IMG/VR virus record: IMGVR_UViG_3300020042_001580 | Location: 1 to 25,108 of that record | From: a virus | Taxonomy: Duplodnaviria > Caudoviricetes | Strand: one strand, 5' to 3' | DNA: 25,108 nucleotides | Shown: positions 1 through 23,499 of the stretch, in pieces | How positions within the stretch are numbered: the stretch's first letter is position 1 | Layout: every line of letters starts with the position of its first letter | Notes under the pieces: model-generated | Database searches by the model: none | The model's input: only the letters and a program-made list of their open reading frames with translations | What the model was told of the DNA's origin: nothing | Program-made: the position numbers and the translations under genes

Positions 1-3000
1 TTAGCGTCTGATATTTCTTGTTCAGTACCTGTACCTTCAGACACAACATTCAACCAATTCTGTATAGCATCAGCCGCAATAGCTAATCGAGCATTACGAG
101 TAATAGCAGTTACAGAAGTCAGACCAGTTATTTTAAAGAATCCATCAGTCCATTTAGAATAATATGATGTTAAGATGTCATTACGATGACCAACACCGCC
201 TTCTCTTAAATACCCTGCCCCAGATAAGTCTGTTCTAATCCTAGCATTCTTAATAAGAACCCTATCAGTAAGCTTGTTACCAATTTCTCTGTAGATAGCA
301 CCTATCTCACTTCCTGTACCTTTAAGTAAAGCTAAGGTAGCTTTAACGGCTTGTGGTCTATTAAGGTTACGATATATCTGAGCAAACTCTACTGTAGAAC
401 TAACAGCGGCTAAGGGTAATGCAGTAATAGTAGATAAGAAGTTAAGAGTATTCAATGCACCTTTTAAATAAGGATTAGTAATAGCCTTGAATTCACCATT
501 ACGCATTGCCAATACATCTTGAATTTCTTTAGCTATAAAGCTAGCTTGTCTATCATCAATGTCACCATTGTCTTTCATCTTCTGAACTAATGCGGCAAGC
601 TTAGAACCGTTTTCACCAATTAACTCTTTATTAGTATTATATGCGGCACCAGATGCGGCTAATGAATAAGCGTTATCTATAATGTTATGAGACATATACT
701 GATTAAAGAAAGCTTTAACATCTGGTTTAGATAACTTAGCTTCTAACTCTTGTTTACCTTTAATCTTTTCTGCATTACCATTTAACAATGCATCAAGTGA
801 ATCTTCAAAACTATTAACTTGTTTGTTATCTAATATTGCATTAGTTAATTCAGTTGCATCAGCATAGTTCATACCTAAACGTTGTTGTAAGTCTCTAACA
901 AACTGACCAGAGTTCTTTGACACAATTGTTTTATCTAACGGTTTATACTCTAAGAACTGTCTAACAGATAAGTCTTTACCTGTAGCTTGGTTGTATGCCC
1001 TAGTTAAATTACTTATTCTATCAGCATAATCAATAATAGAATCTTTAAAGTCACCAAAGTTACCGTAATCAATATCTATCTTATCAGCAATATCTTTTGT
1101 AGATTTAGCAAGTAAGTCCATCTTAATACGAGCTAACTCTGATATTGCATTAGTAACAGTAGGGTTAGATATAATACGAGAAGCTTCTGTAGCAGACACA
1201 CCACCAAAAGATGAAATAAAGTTTTCAATGTTACCAAAGTTCTTAAAGATGTTTGACTCTAGCATAGCCTGATGGTTCTCAATAGATGTACCATTAACAG
1301 CATTAGAACTACCTAACAATGTAGCTAGTGTAGCTGAGTAAATACTCTTATGTGTAGTATCACCAGTTATAATCTTAGAAAACTTACTAAATAAACCACC
1401 AATACCTTTGTCTTTTATAGCAGACATTGTCTTAGCATAGACACCTTCAGTCTGCCTTTTAGCAGTCTCAGCAGAAGCTAAAGCATCTAATGATGTTTCA
1501 ACAGCATTTTTCTCTTGTGATGTTAATGTCTCACCAATAACGTCTATAGTAGAAGGCATTGTAACAATAGGTTTATATCCTGCGGCTACACGTTGCTCAT
1601 TAATATCACTAATATATTTTTCTCTAAATTCAACATCAGTTGATGATCTAGGAACAATATCGCTTGGAGCAGTTAATACTGAGTAAGTCTTAAGACCACC
1701 AGATAAACCACCGCCTAGTACAAAACCACCAGTAGCGGCATTAGCTAATCTAGACTTTAACTTTGTCATTTCTTCTGGTGTAGAGGGTAAATTAAAACCA
1801 CCTTGCTCACCGAAATAACCAGTTAATTCTTGTAATGTCTCTACACCACTCTCAACAAAGGCACCTGTAGCCGTAGCTCCACCAATACCTTTTAATTTAT
1901 TAAGAGTACCACCAGAAATTGTTTTAAATGCAGTACTAACTTCTTTAACAGATTCAGTCATAGACTTACGTAGCAACTCTTCAGCCGCTTCCTTAGTCAT
2001 TGTCTTTTCTAATTCTCTTAGCACCATAGTTTGGGTAGCTGGCTTAGTAATATCTTTACCTTTGCCAAGAATAAAAGGTAATGATAGCTTATCAAGCACT
2101 GTCATAGTAAAACCAGCGGCAATAGCGGCAGTAGCATTTTTATTTTTTTGATCGTTGTATACTTGACCTGTGTACATACTAAATGGAACTGATAATGAAG
2201 CACCATAAGTTATTGGTGAAGCCATAACAGCAACAATACTAGTTAACATTTGAGGAGCAGAAGCAGCCGCAGTACCTACAGTCCAATCAAAAAACTTACC
2301 TAGTGTATCTAGCTTCCACTCACCTTTATCATTAAGAGCTTCTGCACTTCTTAACTCAGGTATGTCTGATAGCATTGAAGTATTTTCGTTAATACCTAAT
2401 TGTGCAAAGCTTTTTACTGCTTCACTACCTGTTTTATCAGCAATAAGATCAAACATACCATACAAGCTTTTAGAAGCGTTAAGTGCACCTTGATCCCAAC
2501 CACTACTTAGATTAGAGGTGGCTTTACCAAAACGATCTTCGCCTGTTCTAATAATAGCTGGACCAGAAAAGAAATCATTGCTTCCTGTATCATCTGTTAC
2601 ATAACCAAATTGTCCAGCAGTGTCTGTATAACGTTTAGCCATAAAACCAGCGGCATTACGTTCTTTGTTTAATGAATTAAGAATGTTGTCTGCTAGCGTA
2701 GGTTTACGTTCAATCCTACGTTGTGCACGTTCTAAATTACCCATATACATAGATGTATATTGACCCGCATCTGTAGATGTTGTTGGGTCAACATAGCCTA
2801 GCTTAAGGGATTCGTTAGTTAAACGATTACCTGCAGGATTTACTAAATCTCCAACCTCACGTTTAAAAGATTGATCACCTGTAAACTTAGGTGTACTGTA
2901 GTTACCTTCACTAATAAGATTTTCCATAATATTAGTTTGAAAGTCAGCACCAAGTTGCGCACCTTTAATTTGATTAGGTTGAAATTTAGCAGTCTCCCTA

Positions 3001-3134
3001 GCGTTAATACCTTGAAGACGGATGGATTCCCCTGTTGGGGCTACCACTGTGTCAGCATCTTTAACTTTAATACCTGTTGGTAGATCTGGTTGCCTTGATA
3101 CTATATTCCGTAGATCTTCTAAAAATCCATCCAT
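1..3134 (-). CDS. Large internal virion / DNA ejection protein (>1040 aa, 3' end outside the window) with an N-terminal SNase (thermonuclease)-like domain
   Basis: Absent from the ORF track because there is no in-frame stop in the window. Manual translation from ATG 3134 (RBS AAAGGA) reads MDGFLEDLRNIVSRQPDLPTGIKVKDADTVVAPTGESIRLQGINARET... and stays open to position 1 (...QEISDA). It has Gly/Ala-rich hydrophobic segments at about 2060-2290 and 1690-1900 (GAFVESGVETLQE), and it is the last and largest gene after the GNAT and small Gly-rich proteins, as in podovirus ejection modules. Confidence 0.8.
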   Translation of the reverse strand, partial: MDGFLEDLRNIVSRQPDLPTGIKVKDADTVVAPTGESIRLQGINARETAKFQPNQIKGAQLGADFQTNIMENLISEGNYSTPKFTGDQSFKREVGDLVNPAGNRLTNESLKLGYVDPTTSTDAGQYTSMYMGNLERAQRRIERKPTLADNILNSLNKERNAAGFMAKRYTDTAGQFGYVTDDTGSNDFFSGPAIIRTGEDRFGKATSNLSSGWDQGALNASKSLYGMFDLIADKTGSEAVKSFAQLGINENTSMLSDIPELRSAEALNDKGEWKLDTLGKFFDWTVGTAAASAPQMLTSIVAVMASPITYGASLSVPFSMYTGQVYNDQKNKNATAAIAAGFTMTVLDKLSLPFILGKGKDITKPATQTMVLRELEKTMTKEAAEELLRKSMTESVKEVSTAFKTISGGTLNKLKGIGGATATGAFVESGVETLQELTGYFGEQGGFNLPSTPEEMTKLKSRLANAATGGFVLGGGLSGGLKTYSVLTAPSDIVPRSSTDVEFREKYISDINEQRVAAGYKPIVTMPSTIDVIGETLTSQEKNAVETSLDALASAETAKRQTEGVYAKTMSAIKDKGIGGLFSKFSKIITGDTTHKSIYSATLATLLGSSNAVNGTSIENHQAMLESNIFKNFGNIENFISSFGGVSATEASRIISNPTVTNAISELARIKMDLLAKSTKDIADKIDIDYGNFGDFKDSIIDYADRISNLTRAYNQATGKDLSVRQFLEYKPLDKTIVSKNSGQFVRDLQQRLGMNYADATELTNAILDNKQVNSFEDSLDALLNGNAEKIKGKQELEAKLSKPDVKAFFNQYMSHNIIDNAYSLAASGAAYNTNKELIGENGSKLAALVQKMKDNGDIDDRQASFIAKEIQDVLAMRNGEFKAITNPYLKGALNTLNFLSTITALPLAAVSSTVEFAQIYRNLNRPQAVKATLALLKGTGSEIGAIYREIGNKLTDRVLIKNARIRTDLSGAGYLREGGVGHRNDILTSYYSKWTDGFFKITGLTSVTAITRNARLAIAADAIQNWLNVVSEGTGTEQEISDA

Positions 3135-3144
3135 GTGTTTTCCT

Positions 3145-5556
3145 TTATTTATCTGATAGCTTTTTTAATTGTGCCTTCATAAATTGTGCATAAGCAGATT
3201 CAGTATCTGTACCGCCAAATTCTTTACGATAATTTTTACCGTTAGGTCCATTCCATTCAGTAGCTATTCTGTTAGCAATTTCAGATTGTTTCTTTATATC
3301 AGACTTACCATCTGAATCTAAGGTTAATACTCTAACCATTCCAAAAAGTTCAGTCATCTTTTCAGGTGGCATTGGTTTACCTTCTTTGCCAACATTAAAC
3401 ATATTTTCTTCAAGCCCTAAACGACTAGAAATAACATTACGAGCTAAATAAGGAGTTATATCTTTAATTTCTTTAACTCTACCTGATTTTTTGTCAGCAA
3501 TCATTTGCTCAGTTGCTTGATTAATAAGTGCTGTTGCTTCCTGAGCTGCATCTGGGTTTGTAATATCAAAACCTGAACGCTTTAAATAAGATAAACTCTG
3601 TTGTGTAGTTTGTTTAGGTGTTGGCAAACCTGATCTTGCAGGATTTGGTTGGTCTTTAACATCGTCACTACCAAGTTCACGTTTAAAAATTTCAGTAACA
3701 GCACTAGCGGCTTTGTCTGTATGAGCTTCCATACGTTTAAGCATTTCTATTGGGTTATTAGCTTTCATATCCTCTCGAGCATACATAAGAACTAATTGAT
3801 TACCCAATGCGGCATTAAATCGTCTATCTGCAGATGCTTGATTTGACGCCATCATTCTTAACTGTTGTTCAAAACGCTTTTCGTCTCTTGTGCGATTATA
3901 TTCATCTTTAATCTCAGCCATTTTAACTTGTTGAGCCGCAACAAAACGATCATGTTCTCTACGAGCTTCTTCACGCCTTACTGTTCTAATTTCAAGTGCT
4001 TCAGCACTTTCTTCTGCACGGGCATCACGAACCTCTTGGCCTCTAATTTGAACAGCAGCAGCACGAATAGCTTTCTTATCTGCTTGTTGTTGTGCATTAC
4101 GCTTAAATGATTCTTCAAATGCTTGTCTACCCGCAAAGGCAAGAGCACGATTAACACCAAACTTTTTAGCACCAACAGCAGTTGAAATAGCCATACGAAT
4201 AATGTCTTGATTATTTAAACCAAGTTCTTCTTTAAAACCACTGGCAGTAAACAAGTTGGCTAAAGAATCTGTAAAAGATTTTTCTGTTTTTTGTGTTCCA
4301 GATAACTCTTGAACAATCTCTGATACGCTACGAATTTTTCTAGATGCTTTAACAGGATCTGTTTCATAATCTTTTCTTTTTCCAGAAACAAAGTTAGGCT
4401 CTAAACTTTCTTTAGAAGGCACTGCGGGTACAGTACTTGCTACAGGTGTATTTTGAGCATTAACCTTATCACGCTCAATTAATTGTTCTGTAGTCATCTG
4501 CGATGAAACATTTGCTAACTCTGTAGGAGTAGGTCCAAGAGGTCCAACAGCTATTGTAGGTTGAGCAACAGGTACTGCTTGTGGTGATACTTCTGGAACC
4601 ATATCTCTTTTAGTCATAGCTGGTACAACTGTAACATTAGGAGCTGGTACCGATTTAACTGGAACTGATGTATCTAAACTTACTGGTACAAATGTTGGTG
4701 ACGTTGTAACCGCATTAGAAGGCTCTGAATCAACAACAATAGAAGGTACTGCCGCAGTAGGTGGTCGTTCAATAGCCCTTGCATTAGCAAACGCTTCAGC
4801 TTTATCTTTAGGATAACGTTCATCCCACACAGGAATGTTTTCAACTGTTGGTTGAATAATTATTGGTACTACGCCTTGACGTTTTCTTTCTTCGTCAATG
4901 TCTGCATCAAGAGTGCCATTATAATATCCTGCGGCAGACTGTACTTGTTGTGGTACTACACCATAAGAACCATTAGCGTAATTAGCTTGGGCAGAAGAGC
5001 CACGGCTAAAGTCAGGTACACTCATTGTACCATGCATGAATGAAGATCCGGGGACGTCTGGATGACGATATGCTAATGAAGGTACACCACTAGTACCGTC
5101 TCTCATTGCATTAGCTTTACGACCCTCTTGTACCATACGCTTAATAGCTTTTTTATTTTTAGGATTCTGTGCGGCAGGTTGTGGTATAACTGCTTCTCCA
5201 GGAGTAAGCATAGCAGGAACTGTATCAGTACCTCTTGCTTGGAAGATAGGAGCTTGAGCAAGGCTACGTTGACCTTGTTTGAACATACCAGTGCCAGCTA
5301 AAGGATTTTGAGATGGAATACCTAACTTTTGTTTGTTCATCCTAGCAGGAGGAATACCCATGTCTTTAAGTTTAACATTGTTAACTTGTTCTTTATGACT
5401 TAAACCTTGATTAGCTTTTGCGGCTGCTTCTTTAAGTTTAAGTTCATGTAATTGTTGTTTACGCATCTCATCCAGTCCCATCTTAGAAACTTCACGAGCT
5501 TCTTTATTTTGGAACTTGAGATATTCTCTCTGTTGTTTACCTGATAAGGGTGCCAT
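3145..5556 (-). CDS. Putative internal virion / ejection protein (803 aa)
   Basis: RBS AAGGA. Contains an N-terminal GTDTVPAMLTPGEAVIP motif, a Pro/Val/Thr-rich linker and a charged coiled-coil region. Lies in the ejection-protein cluster. Confidence 0.6.
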   Translation of the reverse strand: MAPLSGKQQREYLKFQNKEAREVSKMGLDEMRKQQLHELKLKEAAAKANQGLSHKEQVNNVKLKDMGIPPARMNKQKLGIPSQNPLAGTGMFKQGQRSLAQAPIFQARGTDTVPAMLTPGEAVIPQPAAQNPKNKKAIKRMVQEGRKANAMRDGTSGVPSLAYRHPDVPGSSFMHGTMSVPDFSRGSSAQANYANGSYGVVPQQVQSAAGYYNGTLDADIDEERKRQGVVPIIIQPTVENIPVWDERYPKDKAEAFANARAIERPPTAAVPSIVVDSEPSNAVTTSPTFVPVSLDTSVPVKSVPAPNVTVVPAMTKRDMVPEVSPQAVPVAQPTIAVGPLGPTPTELANVSSQMTTEQLIERDKVNAQNTPVASTVPAVPSKESLEPNFVSGKRKDYETDPVKASRKIRSVSEIVQELSGTQKTEKSFTDSLANLFTASGFKEELGLNNQDIIRMAISTAVGAKKFGVNRALAFAGRQAFEESFKRNAQQQADKKAIRAAAVQIRGQEVRDARAEESAEALEIRTVRREEARREHDRFVAAQQVKMAEIKDEYNRTRDEKRFEQQLRMMASNQASADRRFNAALGNQLVLMYAREDMKANNPIEMLKRMEAHTDKAASAVTEIFKRELGSDDVKDQPNPARSGLPTPKQTTQQSLSYLKRSGFDITNPDAAQEATALINQATEQMIADKKSGRVKEIKDITPYLARNVISSRLGLEENMFNVGKEGKPMPPEKMTELFGMVRVLTLDSDGKSDIKKQSEIANRIATEWNGPNGKNYRKEFGGTDTESAYAQFMKAQLKKLSDK

Positions 5557-5565
5557 AGTATTTCC

Positions 5566-6594
5566 TTAAAATATTCCTAGCTTCTTAGCTAACAATGCTC
5601 CACCAATAACCATACCTACTGGACCCATAGCGGCTAAAGCGGCTTCACCGCCCATAGCACCAGCAGCACCTAGCCCCATAGGGGTTGCGGCAGCACCTGC
5701 AGTAGTAGCAACTGGAGCAGCAGCAACACCTGTGCTAAGTCCTGCTAAAGTGCTACCTAATGGAGCCGCAGTACCTGCTACTGTTGGTAACAACATGTTT
5801 GCTTGAGCAGCAGTAGCCGCACCTCCCATTGTAGCGGGAGCACTCAAAGCATAAGAAGTTGGAGCGGCTAATGCAGTAGGAGCAACGGCAGTTGTTGCAG
5901 CTGGGACAGTACCATAAGCTTTGTATGCAGTGTCAATCCCTTTTGCAGCGGCATTAGTTCCTATTGCAGTTAATTGTTGACCTAAAAATTGTTCTGTTTG
6001 ATCAGGAACAAATTGTGGTACAGAAGCTTCTGAAGGCTTAATACTTGCAGACAATGGTGCAACTTGTTCTTTTTTAGTCCAGTTCCAAGGATCATCATCA
6101 GCACCCATTGTGCCTTGTGCATACCCTGCTACTGAGCTAGTACCATAAGCATAACCGGGAACTGACATTGTACCATTAGCCCAACCAGCACCTGCTTCTC
6201 CAGCAGTAGCCCCGTTACCTTCGCCACCTCCTGAATTACCACCCGGACCTTCTCCAGCTGGGCCTCCAATTCCACTACTACCACCACTATTATCATTATA
6301 ATTAACAGAATTAGTAGTTGTGTCAACTGCAGTTGCTGGTGTATTAGCTACCGTTTGATTTTGTGGTAAATAAGTATTACCATAAATAATAGGTGTTCCC
6401 ATAGCAGTTTTTTGTGGTTGCATAGCGCCTCCACTTTTGCCACCAGAATTCATATTAGAATTCATTCCAGAATTGTTACTCATTGTGCCTAAGCTTGAGG
6501 TATTTGTTGTTAGACCACCTGAAGAAGTACTTTGTAAAGGAGCACCCCCATTAAATGTTGTAGCTGTTGGGCTACTTCCTACATCACCAGCCAT
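5566..6594 (-). CDS. Putative ejection/pilot protein, Gly/Ala/Thr-rich low complexity with hydrophobic C-terminus (342 aa)
   Basis: Start overlaps the upstream stop (TAATG at 6592-6596). Ends in ALAAMGPVGMVIGGALLAKKLGIF, a membrane-active helix typical of pilot proteins. Confidence 0.55.
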   Translation of the reverse strand: MAGDVGSSPTATTFNGGAPLQSTSSGGLTTNTSSLGTMSNNSGMNSNMNSGGKSGGAMQPQKTAMGTPIIYGNTYLPQNQTVANTPATAVDTTTNSVNYNDNSGGSSGIGGPAGEGPGGNSGGGEGNGATAGEAGAGWANGTMSVPGYAYGTSSVAGYAQGTMGADDDPWNWTKKEQVAPLSASIKPSEASVPQFVPDQTEQFLGQQLTAIGTNAAAKGIDTAYKAYGTVPAATTAVAPTALAAPTSYALSAPATMGGAATAAQANMLLPTVAGTAAPLGSTLAGLSTGVAAAPVATTAGAAATPMGLGAAGAMGGEAALAAMGPVGMVIGGALLAKKLGIF

Positions 6595-7283
6595 TATTTA
6601 CCTCCAGAAGCTTGTTGTCGTGCAGGATTACCATAAATAGTAGAAGCATAACGTTGAAGACCTTGCCAACCTGCATCAAGACCTTGTTGATCAATACCAC
6701 GTTGTTGATTACCAAGATTAGCAGTAGCGCTAACCCCTTGATTAACAATACCTGATGCAGTTGTAGCACCTGATTGAAGAGCTTGTTCAGCTGCAAGACG
6801 ATTCTTAAACATATTAGATTCAGCTTCTGCATCTACTTTAGCAAGCGCACCTGTAGTTTCGGCGTTTTGAGCACCTTGCATAACAGCTTGTCGTGCAGAA
6901 CCCAGTGTTCCTGCTTGACCAAAACCTGTATTAAGTTTAGCAACGCCCTTTTGAGCTTCATTAAGAATACTAGCTTTTTGAGCCGCTAATGTTGCGGCAC
7001 TAGGAGCCGTTGCCATAGTAGATAATCTTTTATTTTGATCACCAAGTGAAGCAAGAGCTGTGTCTGTAGTAGCACCAATCTTTTTAGCACCAGTACCAAA
7101 AGCGTCTTGTTGTAGTACTGATGCCCCCGCTACCTTATTAAGATCACCAGAGGTATAACCCGTTTCAGCGGCTTTACCAACATTTTCCATGTATGGTCTT
7201 GCCCATTCTGGAATACTACTTACAGTATTTCCACCTCCACCCCCGTAGTTCTTTTTAATAGAACCATTAATTTTATATTTCAT
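6594..7283 (-). CDS. Putative small ejection protein (positional analogue of P22 gp7 / T7 gp14; 229 aa)
   Basis: Basic N-terminal leader followed by a GGGGG run (MKYKINGSIKKNYGGGGGNT-VSSIPEWARPY), an Ala/Gln-rich helical body and a GSARQ motif. Directly follows the GNAT-like gene with an ATGA overlap. Confidence 0.6.
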   Translation of the reverse strand: MKYKINGSIKKNYGGGGGNTVSSIPEWARPYMENVGKAAETGYTSGDLNKVAGASVLQQDAFGTGAKKIGATTDTALASLGDQNKRLSTMATAPSAATLAAQKASILNEAQKGVAKLNTGFGQAGTLGSARQAVMQGAQNAETTGALAKVDAEAESNMFKNRLAAEQALQSGATTASGIVNQGVSATANLGNQQRGIDQQGLDAGWQGLQRYASTIYGNPARQQASGGK

Positions 7284-7699
7284 TCTAAATCCTTTCGCAT
7301 TACTACGTAAGCTTCTTTAAATCCAGATACATACTTTGGTAGTACCTTTGCCCATCCTGGACGACCCCATTGTTCAATAGCTTTACAGCCAGAATCACGG
7401 GCAAATTGTTCCACTGTAGGGAACACCTTAGATTGTTCTTCAAAGTCACTTCCAGAGAAAGCAATTATATGAAGTGTTTTATGTTGAGAGTATTGTAAGT
7501 ATTGAGTTAAACCAGCACCAATAATATTTAATTCATCATCTACCACCGCCCAACATTGAATATACTCATTGAGAATCTTTTTAAGATAGTCTGTTAACGT
7601 AGATTCTCCTTGTCCATGCTCAATTACTTTCTGTAATAATACAGAGAGTGTTGACCAGTGTTGTACTGTTTGTTCGGGTGATAGTAAGATAATTTTCAT
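7280..7699 (-). CDS. GNAT-fold acetyltransferase-like virion assembly protein (positional analogue of P22 gp14 / T7 gp13; 139 aa)
   Basis: Start reassigned to ATG 7699 (MKIILLSPEQ...), 2 nt after the upstream stop. The C-terminal FARDSGCKAIEQWGRPGWAKVL motif is typical of this phage GNAT-like family. Located between tail genes and ejection genes. Confidence 0.65.
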   Translation of the reverse strand: MKIILLSPEQTVQHWSTLSVLLQKVIEHGQGESTLTDYLKKILNEYIQCWAVVDDELNIIGAGLTQYLQYSQHKTLHIIAFSGSDFEEQSKVFPTVEQFARDSGCKAIEQWGRPGWAKVLPKYVSGFKEAYVVMRKDLE

Positions 7700-10477: not shown

Positions 10478-12019
10478 TTATCTCCGATCCGCAGGTTTGG
10501 TATCAAAAAGCATTGTGCTTAATCTCCAATAATTTGTTGATGTAATTCTAAAACTTAGCAATCTACCATTAACTCTAGGATCTACTTTATATCCTTGAGA
10601 TTTTTCATTGCTAGGTAAAAATGTAAATGTATCCTTTAAATTTGGATTATCAATAGATAAATCAGGAACGTCAGTATAATTGTTTTGTCCAACAACTCTA
10701 ATTGTTATATTAGCATCAACAGGTACTTTGTCAAATACAGGGAATAAAGATACAACTAAAGAGCTACCAGTTACATCCCCAGAATTAAGATATATTTTTT
10801 CAATATAAGAACTGTATGATGCTAATGCAGATCCATTCCACATTAAATAATTACTATCTGTAACTAAAGTTTGGGTACCTGTTGTTGTAAAATAAACCAC
10901 TTCTTTAGCATATTGAAAGGTATTAGACACATTTTCAGGACCAGTAAACGAATATGTAATGTTTCCTAAAGATCTTTTTGTCCATGTATTATTTTTATAA
11001 TTAAATATTAATGCTTCAGTACAAGATGTAGCACTTCCTTTAGGAAAATTAATCCAAATTTCTTTATAATATGAGTGTTTAGTTATATGAACTTTATCAA
11101 CATAACTTTTATTAAGATTATTAAAGAAATATTTTTTAATACGCCAATCAGCTATAGACTCAATAGAGCCAGAACCGTTATGAATATAGATATCGTTTCT
11201 ATCTACAACAAAATGGCTACCGTCAAATTCTGTTACACAATCTGTATTTAAAATACCATAAGACCTTGAATAAAATGATACTCTTGTTTGCGCCCCAATA
11301 GTAAGCAAGCTAATACTATCTGAAGAATAAACAAACATATTGCCTCTAAGTTCAGCCATATCTAATACAGGCGAAGTAGAACTTAACTCAAATTCATCTG
11401 CAGTATCTGTTGTTACTCCGGGTTGCCACACTCCGGGTACGTCACCAGTTTGTGCTTGCACTGAAACTCGAATAGTACCAGGAGCATACGTTGTTGTTCC
11501 ACCAGAGCTAACAGTTAAATTAGCTGCAACTAAAGAATAATTTAATGACCTAATAACTTTAGCAGTAATAGTCATTCCTGCAACATAATTCCAATTAGGT
11601 AAAGGTTGAAAAGTACTTCCAGCAGAAGCACTCCCATACAAACAATACAAAGGAGTTGTATTACCATTATTCATAATAATAGCATAGCCACCGTTAAATT
11701 TAGTAGCTTGCCAATCACTATTGTTGTATGCTGCGTCTCCACTACTAAACATAGAAGAAGAACCACCTGACGCATCTACCCTAACAATATTTCCATTTTT
11801 AGCAAAGATATTGTATCCTTGATCAGGTCTCCTCCAATGAATTCCAAAATCAGGTGAATTAGATACTGTTCTTGATGTTGTTTCACCTGTAATTGTTTGT
11901 ACGGCTTCATCATCGAAGCGAACGTTTAATACATCTGTAAATGTATTTGGTGGTAGAATCATAGGTGGTACATCAGTGTTTAAACCACCCTTACCTAGCT
12001 TATCAACTGGAGTTGCCAT
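10478..12019 (-). CDS. Tail hub/nozzle (P22 gp10-like stabilization protein; 513 aa)
   Basis: Size of about 510 aa, N-terminal GGLNTD..P......DVLNVRF, beta-propeller-like sequence, KEIWINFP...ALIFNYKNNTW motif and C-terminal RVNGRLLSFRI. RBS AAGGA. Confidence 0.65.
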   Translation of the reverse strand: MATPVDKLGKGGLNTDVPPMILPPNTFTDVLNVRFDDEAVQTITGETTSRTVSNSPDFGIHWRRPDQGYNIFAKNGNIVRVDASGGSSSMFSSGDAAYNNSDWQATKFNGGYAIIMNNGNTTPLYCLYGSASAGSTFQPLPNWNYVAGMTITAKVIRSLNYSLVAANLTVSSGGTTTYAPGTIRVSVQAQTGDVPGVWQPGVTTDTADEFELSSTSPVLDMAELRGNMFVYSSDSISLLTIGAQTRVSFYSRSYGILNTDCVTEFDGSHFVVDRNDIYIHNGSGSIESIADWRIKKYFFNNLNKSYVDKVHITKHSYYKEIWINFPKGSATSCTEALIFNYKNNTWTKRSLGNITYSFTGPENVSNTFQYAKEVVYFTTTGTQTLVTDSNYLMWNGSALASYSSYIEKIYLNSGDVTGSSLVVSLFPVFDKVPVDANITIRVVGQNNYTDVPDLSIDNPNLKDTFTFLPSNEKSQGYKVDPRVNGRLLSFRITSTNYWRLSTMLFDTKPADRR

Positions 12020-20757: not shown

Positions 20758-23499
20758 TTATGATACTGTTACGTTTATGGTTGTGCCACTGAAGTTTAAT
20801 ACTGGTAAAAAACCATTTGCAACTGATATTGCTACAACTGAGCTTGCATTATTCAAAATGTTTAATACAGTTGGAAGTATATTCCATGAAGCAGTAGTTC
20901 CATCTGTCTTTAAAAATTTATTAGCATTACCTGTTTGAGAAGGTAGTGATACAGGAGCTGCTGCCCATGTTCCAGCTGTACCATCTGAAGTAAGTACATA
21001 ACCGTTTGTTCCACCAAGAACTCCATTAGCCGCTACTTGACCTACGTTGATAACGTTGTATACAACTGCTTCAACAATATCGTTTAATGCCGCAGCTGAA
21101 GCAAGAACAAAGGCTGTTCCACTAGATGCAGTATAATCTGTACTATCTAGCAACACACCATTTAAATATACTTGCAACAAGGCTGATGTATAATTTACTG
21201 TAAATGAAGTTTGTCCAGAAGTAGCCGTAAATGTTGTACGTGTATATGTCTGTGTAGGAAGGCTAATAGTAGCCCATGAAGCTACTGTACCGTTTGTTGT
21301 AAGATATTTACCTGATTGACTTGTCTGTGAAGGTAAAGCATCTACTGTAGCCCATGAAGTGTCTGTACCATCTGTCTTAAGATACTTGTTAGCATTACTT
21401 GTTTGACTAGGTGCAAGAGCATTGAATGCTGTGTTAGCAGTTGTTTGTCCTGTGCCACCAGAACCTATTGCAAGAGTACTAGATAATCCTGCAGCTGTTC
21501 CTGTAGTATTTTGGTTCCATGTTGGAACAGTACCTGTTAAACCTGAATAGGCTACGTTAGTTGCAGTAGCTGCATTACCTGTTGTATTCTGGTTTAATGT
21601 AGGAATATCAGAGGCAACAATTGCTCTAAACGTGGGTACACCAGCTGATCCATTAGGAGCCGCTAACACAAAGTTTGCAGTCTTAGATGCATACGGGTTT
21701 TGTGTGTCACCATAACTAGCCGCTAAACTAATTGCAGGAGTTGCTCCACCACTAGATGAAACAGGGGCTGTACCTGTTACTGCTGTAATTATTCCAGAAG
21801 CACCAGTAATAGATCCACCAGTAATATTAACATTATTAGCATTTTGAACAGACATTGTTCCAAGACCACTAATATCAGTATTATCTAATACAATAGCACC
21901 TGTACGACCAGCTACAGAAGTAACTAAGTTAGTCTGGTCAATCTTTTGCCATGCTGTACCGTTAAAAATAGCCCAGTCACCAATGACCCAGTCAGTTACG
22001 CCATCAAGGTTAGTACTACCTGAAACAGATACTACATAGTATGTTCCTTGAGTACCTACACCTGAAACAAGTGTTGGTGTGTTAGTAGATGCGTTCCATG
22101 TACCACCATATATGAGACCACCAGTAAGACTTACCCATTGTGTATCATAGTTAGTACTACTTAACTTAGCAAGAACTTGTCCTGTTGTACCGCCTGTAGC
22201 AAATCCAGGAGTGTTCATCCATGCTGAACCAGTATATACCTTCATGATACTACTAGTTGAATTAAAGTACATAGCTCCTGTTATAAGAGCATTACCATCA
22301 TTATCTACTGTTGGATCACTAGTCTTAGCACCAAGATAGCGGTCATCAAATGAATCATAAGAAGCAGCCGCATTATTTGCACTTGTTAAAGCATTAGCCG
22401 CTTGTGTAGTAGCTATACCAGCTTGTGTAGTAGCAGTAGTTGCGCTAGTAGAAGCATTAGTAGCTTGTGTTGTAGCTATTCCTGCTTGCGTTGTTGCAGT
22501 AGTTGCGCTAGTAGAAGCATTACCAGCTTGCGTAGTAGCTATCCCTGCTTGAGTAGTGGAAATACCTGCCTGTGTTGTTGCAGTGGTTGCACTAGTAGAA
22601 GCATCTCCTGCTTGTGTTGTGGCAATGCCTGCTTGTGTTGTAGCTATTCCTGCTTGAGTAGTTGCTATTCCAGCCTGTGTTGTAGCAGTAGTTGCACTAG
22701 TAGAAGCATTAGTAGCTTGTGTTGTAGCTATCCCTGCTTGAGTTGTAGCAGTAGTTGCACTAGTAGAAGCATTACCTGCTTGTGTAGTTGCAATACCTGC
22801 TTGAGTTGTAGCAATACCTGCTTGTGTTGTTGCAGTAGTTGCACTAGTAGAAGCATTAGTAGCCTGAGTAGTAGCAATACCAGCTTGAGTTGTAGCAATC
22901 CCTGCTTGAGTTGTTGCGGTAGATGCGCTGGTAGCGGCATTAGTAGCTTCTGTAGTAGCAAGCCCCGCTTGTGTAGTTGCAGTAGAGGCACTGTTAGCCG
23001 CATTAGACGCTTGTGTTGTTGCAGTTGTTGCCGCATTAGTTGCAGTAGTAGCAGACGCAGTTGCAGATGATGCACTAGTAGCCGCATTAGTTGCTTGTGC
23101 TGTTGCTATTCCTGCTTGTGTTGTTGCGGTAGCCGCACTTGTAGCAGAATTGGTTGCTTGTGTTGTAGCCGTAGCCGCACTTGTAGCGGCATTAGTTGCT
23201 TGAGTTGTAGCCGTAGACGCACTAGCAGAAGCACCAGATGCGCTTGTAGCCGCATTAGTCGCCTGTGTTGTAGCAACTCCTGCTTGAGTTGTTGCTGTTG
23301 TAGCCGCAGATGTTGCAGTAGAAGCAGAGCTAGCCGCAGCTGTTGCCGAGCTTGCAGCCGCAGTAGCGCTTGCCGCAGCTGCATCCGCTTGAGTAGCCGC
23401 TAGGTTTTCATAACTTGCTGAACTCGTCTCGTCAGTATTGTCATATTCTCCACCTTTTGAGGTATTAGCAGTAGCTCCTGCTGTTGTATTATATGCCAT
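20758..23499 (-). CDS. Long tail fibre / whisker protein with an Ala/Thr heptad stalk (913 aa)
   Basis: Strong RBS AAGGAGG. About 340 aa of [21 protein letters not shown] heptads, then [33 protein letters not shown] and PSQT..GKYLTT.G fibre motifs. Directly follows the adaptor gene. Confidence 0.8.
22380..23400. repeat. Coding tandem repeat with 21-bp periodicity
   Basis: ctagtagaagcat occurs at 22445, 22508, 22592, 22697, 22760 and 22844. The spacings (63, 84, 105, 63, 84) are all multiples of 21 bp. Confidence 0.9.

Follow-up and report, generated by a model that had tools for sequence, protein, structure and literature searches.

The enzymes known to front gp16-class ejection proteins are cell-wall hydrolases. 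The accessible sections of a review of ejection proteins (PMC8954989) place residues 1-228 of T7 gp16 in the periplasm, ahead of transmembrane helix I (TMH I), and the accessible part of a paper on coliphage N4 (PMC13434306) gives predicted membrane helices at residues 224-278 of gp50 with the polymerase behind them. Mass spectrometry found gp53 of Pa223, a Bruynoghevirus, in the virions, and the protein is proposed to form a gp16-like inner-membrane complex (accessible portion of bioRxiv 10.1101/2025.06.11.659172). Here we analyze a 25,108-base stretch of a tailed virus (Caudoviricetes; IMG/VR record IMGVR_UViG_3300020042_001580, positions 1 to 25,108; hereafter the window), a whole contig whose genes, structural ones of a phage, all lie on the minus strand. 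One of these genes encodes a large ejection-class protein with a staphylococcal nuclease (SNase) domain at its N-terminus; a nuclease whose active site is conserved departs from what is known for this position.

The domain was first recognized by eye. The original prediction quoted SNase motifs at 2790-3071, residues 22-115 of the minus-strand open reading frame (ORF) 3134→3, and all of them are present. Since the domain sequence of the window, searched alone, found no family (no match in Pfam, PHROG or NCBIfam, and no significant match in the PDB), this by-eye resemblance needed a family test. A profile of 29 aligned N-termini matched staphylococcal nuclease in the PDB at E 5.8e-6, with all 60 matches shown being SNase, and Pfam SNase (PF00565) was matched at E<=1 by 15 of the 29 family members (best 1.9e-5), so that the profile comparison suggested with the prediction fails for the single sequence and succeeds for the family. 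A shallow first full-length profile (A1) had missed SNase in the PDB. The AlphaFold (AF2) model of the domain has a pLDDT score of 79.5, falling below 50 at residues 1-13 and 50-59, and consists of the SNase strands and three helices (OB-fold), ending near residue 141. Foldseek, which the prediction had also called for, returned SNase in all 50 matches shown (best E 3e-5), and VIA aligned the model to 1sta at Z 11.0 (root-mean-square deviation 3.1 Å over 111 residues), with Tudor-SN domains next by fold (Z 9.7-9.9). In the ESM Atlas, residues 15-150 scored 0.89-0.90 to unnamed and nuclease clusters, which we treat as a lead only. The N-terminal placement of the domain stood; its predicted end did not, because the third helix (123-141) carries it on to about residue 142. 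Family profile and model agree on the fold, and we consider it confirmed that residues ~20-142 form an SNase domain. The domain is already auto-labelled in databases on two large phage proteins, without its context: the best match in a viral library search was an unnamed protein of 1368 residues, as long as CRP-7 gp34, a phage protein of 1342 residues is labelled SNase-like, and the JGI label of relative P0010 is thermonuclease. A plus-strand ORF of 70 codons with a TTG start (2871-3083) lies opposite the domain and is taken as a shadow frame of the real gene.

To survey conservation we gathered 143 sequences and dropped nine (seven without the N-terminus, L077, in which the intact domain is followed by an in-frame stop, and P0027 with no SNase), leaving 134, of which 111 are distinct. 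Retrieval was biased, as 54 of the proteins were found with the domain itself (15 + 39). Less biased are the loci located through motifs that lie outside it: of 40, the N-terminus is included in 39, each of which has the SNase motifs; a further 32 loci from new contigs (of 60) comprise 25 that match the domain profile, six without the N-terminus, and L077. SNase is a calcium-dependent enzyme whose active-site set is D19, D21, R35, E43 and R87, with D40 as a calcium ligand. As the original prediction had it, D21, R35, E43 and R87 are kept in the profile alignment as D28, R39, E47 and R92, with D40 replaced by N44; besides the residues first quoted, the equivalents of D19 and T22 (D26 and T29) are kept as well. 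Among 59 representatives less than 80% identical to one another (median identity 30%, minimum 15%), the median column conservation is 41%, and just 6 of 97 columns are conserved at 98% or more: the equivalents of D19, D21, T22, R35, E43 and R87. That these six active-site residues are the sole columns at this level counts against the proposal, also part of the original prediction, that this is merely a dead fold gripping DNA. Degenerate SN domains of the Tudor-SN type have lost the catalytic set, and this identity was rejected because the set is retained in 111 of 111 sequences.

Position 40 behaves differently. The survey that the prediction had suggested gives N in 46, S in 31, D in 17, E in 16 and T in 1 of the 111 sequences, so the calcium-ligand aspartate is missing from the window (N44) and lost in 94 of 111 relatives, while the residue always bears a side-chain oxygen, among the 59 representatives as among the 111 distinct sequences. 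Judged from the alignment, this change appears to lower the status of the domain as a canonical enzyme and not its membership in the fold. For SNase itself, losing D21, R35, E43 or R87 costs most and losing D40 least, a ranking for which we found no confirming paper. Literature on D40 mutants yielded nothing usable, the accessible part of PMC3227005 giving residue numbers and pKa alone. In a tree of the 59 domains, D at position 40 occurs on several deep branches, including that of roseophage CRP-7, and N is typical of the window clade, one member of which has D.

The body of the protein belongs with the gp53 class of virion proteins. Of 20 full-length members, 18 match PHROG 6958, "virion structural protein" (best 3.6e-38), and the family profile aligns with a 1043-residue protein of Pseudomonas phage JB8 at hhalign P 99.6% over 836 columns; the JB8 protein is 39% identical to LUZ24 gp50. 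Searched against a 17-protein set, the family hidden Markov model finds Pa223 gp53 with a score of 101 bits; the alignment falls into two collinear blocks, pairing profile positions 216-433 with gp53 64-288 and 822-1174 with 597-956. Pairwise BLAST of the window protein alone against gp53 is weak (E 0.001). A linker of ~60 residues separates the SNase domain from a Gly/Ala-rich module, residues ~205-480, which is the predicted membrane-inserting part, with hydropathy peaks at 296-314 and 338-356 and helices in the model. In gp53-like proteins this module stands at or near the N-terminus, and no SNase was found in gp53, gp50, the JB8, VPp1, CRPAP1904 and Mae-Yong1326-1 proteins or P0027; the SNase domain is an add-on set ahead of the module with which gp53-like proteins begin. 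In the window the ORF is truncated where the contig stops; the 15 relatives found with residues 15-200 measure 1264-1276 residues, and full-length relatives span 1260-1460, the more distant members reaching 1460. No cysteine occurs in 101 of 109 full-length members, although cysteine makes up 1.7% of 54 ORFs on the opposite strand, and the three upstream cassette genes of the window, gp53, and T7 gp15 and gp16 are cysteine-free too. This avoidance gives indirect support for presence in the virion and ejection. The likening to T7 gp16 in the original prediction holds in so far as an enzyme domain occupies the slot of the gp16 transglycosylase; homology to gp16 was not detected by profile, and the firm link is to Bruynoghevirus gp53. 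No lytic transglycosylase (SLT) match was found in the protein, where SNase fills that slot.

CRP-7 is the only cultured match to the window protein. The accessible part of its description (PMC6918029) presents a short-tailed phage of a novel group with a T7-type polymerase and mentions no nuclease. Its gp34 has a textbook SNase N-terminus. The CRP-7-type layout, seen in close relatives, places a hydrolase-bearing gene and a gene of ~1200 residues on either flank and a T7-type polymerase on the opposite strand, a comparison that rests on relatives since the window ends inside the SNase-bearing gene. CRP-822-type phages were considered and set aside as unrelated (accessible part of PMC12629253). 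A second, distant lineage of ~2030-2050 residues (P0025, P0026, P0028 and gp66 of Aeromonas phage phiA008) is likewise SNase-first, scores above the Pfam cut-off with D40 intact, and sits on a very long branch of the domain tree; a search with P0025 found no viral contig. The phiA008 protein (L097:13911-20063), a "hypothetical protein", combines SNase and the gp53-like module with an HExxH motif (1079) and the common C-terminal domain. In the giants built on the gp53 scaffold generally, LPD1, ART-like and HExxH motifs follow the module and SNase precedes it. In Roseobacter phage CRP-810 (L099:6460-16100) a scaffold giant appears as three overlapping ORFs, either through frameshifts or as true splits: the N-module is in gp36, the ART-like domain in gp35 and the C-domain in gp34. 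One family member (L096, NZIO01000029.1) is in a contig binned as Candidatus Pelagibacter, which may reflect a host link or mis-binning.

Along the minus strand, the window reads from an SU10-type adaptor through tail fibres with chaperones, an endolysin and a 513-residue tail hub to genes of 139, 229, 342, 803 and at least 1044 residues (Table 1). The tail hub, by its homology, marks a short-tailed virion. The 229-residue family has no significant match to Pa223 gp56. In the fibre block, which varies strongly between relatives, a fibre-like gene of 913 residues (20758-23499) has a long Ala/Thr/Gln repeat tract whose other frames form spurious Cys/Ser- and Leu/Gln-rich ORFs, and three tail-assembly-chaperone genes (PF16778; 7702-8163, 14019-14477 and 17554-18051) each follow a fibre or lectin-domain gene of their own. 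Across the loci of relatives the order of genes is conserved, which puts the SNase-bearing gene in the middle of the three large genes of its cassette and not at the end. The gene upstream of it carries one of five cell-wall hydrolase types in 10 of 14 relatives tested, and the types (GH108, phage lysozyme, tail lysozyme, SLT and pesticin-like) are swapped between relatives, which likewise points to ejection; none was detected in the copy of the window (3145-5556) or in the other four.

Table 1. Location of the SNase-bearing gene, its parts and neighbouring features (positions in the window unless a locus is named)
Feature	Location	Strand	Remarks
Large ejection-class gene	3..3134	minus	First 1044 of ~1265 codons; runs off contig; cysteine-free
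AGGA ribosome-binding motif	3141..3144	minus	Upstream of ATG at 3134
SNase (thermonuclease) domain	2709..3077	minus	Residues ~20-142; family profile, Pfam, AlphaFold model
D26-A27-D28-T29 (SNase D19-G20-D21-T22)	3048..3059	minus	D, D and T invariant in 111/111; codons D26 3057-3059, D28 3051-3053
R39...N44...E47 (SNase R35...D40...E43)	2994..3020	minus	R and E invariant in 111/111; codons R39 3018-3020, N44 3003-3005, E47 2994-2996
R92 (SNase R87)	2859..2861	minus	Invariant in 111/111
Gly/Ala-rich, mildly hydrophobic helical module	1695..2522	minus	Residues ~205-480; predicted membrane-inserting
Conserved C-terminal domain	3..707	minus	Residues ~810 onward; common to gp53-like and 2000-2400-residue ejection giants
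803-residue gene	3145..5556	minus	Cysteine-free; periplasmic-tunnel (gp15/gp54-like) position, which suggests a tunnel role
342- and 229-residue genes	5566..7283	minus	Cysteine-free, Gly/Ala-rich; candidate small ejection proteins
139-residue gene	7280..7699	minus	Pa223 gp57 homologue (E 3e-7, 17-protein set); opens cassette
Tail hub/nozzle	10478..12019	minus	Pa223 gp59 homologue (E 4e-58), PHROG 3287
Polymerase-family gene	L001:13800-17297, L102 and 62 further loci		Directly after SNase-bearing gene; beyond the end of the window
Upstream-gene hydrolase comparison	L012, L015, L026, L027, L030, L035, L042, L003:13718-17389		Loci of relatives

The gene beyond the SNase-bearing one measures 1110-1320 residues and belongs to a single family in 64 of the 65 loci with enough downstream DNA, a count that is not de-replicated and includes the 20 loci from which the profile of this family was built. 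The sole miss is CRP-7, whose gp33 matches the family at E 1.6e-4. The polymerase motif A, B and C residues are invariant, PHROG matches are weak, with 4 of 20 members hitting RNA polymerase and 1 of 20 hitting virion RNA polymerase, and the Atlas gives 0.92-0.94 to PF00940 clusters. There was no PDB match, and hhalign comparisons with N4 gp50 and CRP-7 gp30 were non-significant, both alignments falling on motif A. The family is cysteine-free, and the T7-type polymerase of these phages, which also encode a ribonucleotide reductase, lies on the opposite strand. On these sequence features the downstream gene is likely a divergent single-subunit RNA polymerase carried in the virion. At two loci (L011:10001-13791 and L077:~1440-5822) the SNase-bearing gene is broken by single in-frame stops and at a third (L025) it is inverted against its neighbours, irregularities that are probably assembly errors.

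The reading that we favour, at a probability of about 0.38, is that the SNase domain acts as a calcium-dependent nuclease on the periplasmic side and cuts unshielded nucleic acid. A few copies of the protein would be stored in the phage head and leave it through the tail, the Gly/Ala-rich module would insert in the inner membrane, and the SNase domain would refold on the periplasmic side after ejection, where it could cut nucleic acid outside the DNA tunnel in a calcium-dependent, sequence-nonspecific manner. Packaging and ejection with the virion seem to us very probable, and catalysis by the domain probable; a periplasmic location is favoured with less assurance, since the domain, like the T7 transglycosylase, stands in front of the membrane module, and the other cargo of the larger homologues follows it. 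Calcium is plentiful in the periplasm, whereas free calcium in the cytoplasm is low. It is this, with the topology of the T7 and N4 proteins and the domain order of the giants, that leads us to prefer an active periplasmic nuclease. The likeliest substrate is unprotected DNA at the place of injection, for example that of a competing phage, which is the weakest step of the proposal. Clearing of extracellular DNA before adsorption, another role in the original prediction, is unlikely, since an ejection protein should remain inside the capsid until adsorption.

Several points weigh against a periplasmic nuclease. In the clade of the window N replaces D40, and in its close clade the alignment lacks an equivalent of D83. 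The domain is not basic, its net charge being +1 in the window and -2 at the family median (range -13 to +3), as against about +9 for SNase, counted on the PDB-aligned stretch. The hydropathy peaks are too weak for the number of membrane crossings to be read from them. Homology of T7 gp16 to the family was not detected by profile (hhalign P 0.2%), and the body model (L001 residues 150-1269, pLDDT 70.7) matches nothing at E<=0.001 or Z>=8; its weak fold matches to PhiM1/T7 core proteins (8vb2_A, Foldseek probability 0.72, E 0.07, VIA Z 5.7 over 254 residues; 9jyy_I, probability 0.23) are below significance, so the link to T7 gp16 is weak. Incoming phage DNA is normally shielded and many hosts have periplasmic nucleases, which makes the benefit less clear. 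Universal retention beside a labile hydrolase slot fits an essential job better than an anti-competitor accessory. Finally, when SNase was packaged into T4 heads it cut the DNA inside them (PMC7697877), a hazard for any capsid, and any active reading must therefore explain storage beside the genome. Candidate explanations are that the domain is kept unfolded or occluded and that its calcium site is weakened; more speculatively, the variable D40 position might lower calcium affinity and so keep the enzyme quiet next to packaged DNA.

Other readings of the domain share parts of this evidence. These phages might inject a working, calcium-gated nuclease together with their own RNA polymerase ahead of the genome, the nuclease staying silent in the head and being switched on during passage through the envelope for an essential first step, whether attack on the host genome or processing of the phage DNA end; this is a tentative idea to which we give less credence than to the periplasmic nuclease. 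An early host takeover seems doubtful: active nuclease would reach the cytoplasm, either released or by crossing the membrane an even number of times, and attack the DNA or RNA of the host ahead of any exposure of the phage genome, with the co-ejected polymerase giving independence in transcription. Catalytic residues conserved in 111 of 111 sequences would suit it, as would a polymerase-family gene with invariant motifs next door in 64 of 65 loci and the T7-type polymerase and ribonucleotide reductase that the phages also encode. Low cytoplasmic calcium speaks against it, however, and a nonspecific nuclease there would meet the phage's own DNA. The N-terminal slot is moreover periplasmic in T7, going by the accessible sections of PMC8954989, so that access to the cytoplasm would be needed, and phiA008, which has the SNase fusion, has just a 127-codon gene downstream of it.

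Handling of the phage's own genome is an unlikely role, in which the domain would bind or slowly nick the leading DNA end via a metal-bridged phosphate and so aid tunnel entry or preparation of the template for the virion polymerase. Universal retention suggests a core job, and the loss of D40 in 94 of 111 sequences, the low positive charge and the danger posed by a fast nuclease inside the capsid (PMC7697877) would all be accommodated; yet E47, the equivalent of the general base, is invariant, Bruynoghevirus, VPp1, KPP25-type and Mae-Yong1326-1 homologues eject DNA without an SNase domain, and the accessible sections of PMC8954989 assign DNA binding in T7 to gp16-C. If instead the domain were a repurposed phosphodiesterase, it could cut phosphodiesters of the envelope (phosphoglycerol-substituted glucans, lipids or lipopolysaccharide substituents) and clear the path of the tunnel. 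Its place before the membrane module, where cell-wall hydrolases usually sit, the near-neutral or acidic surface and the changes at D40, D83 and aromatic positions would agree with this, but many members, CRP-7 among them, keep the D-x-Y-G-R nucleotide-pocket motif, and SNase-family enzymes are not known to act on such substrates; we think it improbable. Less probable again is a domain that does not travel, being removed at assembly or acting late in the infected cell, for example in recycling host DNA. The ~60-residue linker would leave room for removal, but the domain is cysteine-free like the body and is always fused in the loci examined, in a domain-profile search that covered proteins of at least 290 residues.

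The fusion is well supported as architecture, the mechanism less so. No description of an SNase–ejection protein fusion was found in the literature searched, most subscription papers lying outside its coverage, nor any of the phiA008 fusion. The word "nuclease" does not occur in the accessible text of the ejection-protein review (PMC8954989) or the N4 paper (PMC13434306), and "SNase" and "staphylococcal" do not occur in the accessible main text of PMC5512222, whose supplements, outside this count, may list the domain. Retention through a diverse phage family and recurrence in a distant lineage imply an unrecognized step at the start of infection, and raise the puzzle of a particle that stores a nuclease next to its own genome. 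If a calcium-gated nuclease and a polymerase are indeed injected first, a widespread group of short-tailed phages would carry in the virion a nuclease that forms part of the DNA-ejection channel. The cultured carriers CRP-7 and phiA008 and a domain of ~125 residues make the idea testable.

Set beside staphylococcal nuclease (PF00565; 1sta, 1snc, 1ey0), the window domain shares the OB-fold with three helices and the equivalents of D19, D21, T22, R35, E43 and R87, and differs in its 11-17% identity, N at D40, lack of a signal peptide, less basic character and fusion to a virion protein of ~1100 residues. The protein resembles T7 gp16 in size, cassette position and the order of N-terminal enzyme then hydrophobic region, but the enzyme there is a transglycosylase and there is no significant profile match. 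Coliphage N4 offers a parallel in the neighbouring gene, as the relatives encode a cysteine-free single-subunit polymerase in the ejection cassette and a second polymerase, although theirs is a separate gene of ~1110-1320 residues after the gp53-like gene and hhalign to gp50 is not significant. The large polyvalent proteins (Iyer et al. 2017, PMC5512222), for which the accessible text proposes co-delivered ParB-like DNases, are resembled by the giant scaffold homologues with their LPD1, ART-like and HExxH motifs, whereas the window family has a single N-terminal domain. With the largest ejection protein of Bruynoghevirus (Pa223 gp53, LUZ24 gp50, PaP3 orf19; PHROG 6958) the window protein shares the collinear module and C-terminal domain, the absence of cysteine, and a place at the end of the tail and ejection block of a short-tailed phage with gp57 and gp59 homologues nearby; gp53 has ~60 residues before the module, no SNase and no large polymerase gene behind it. 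The same SNase-first architecture recurs in CRP-7 gp34 (MK613349) and phiA008 gp66 (OL774570), both with D40 and both annotated "hypothetical protein", the latter differing in its 2050 residues, a large insert and the lack of a large downstream gene.

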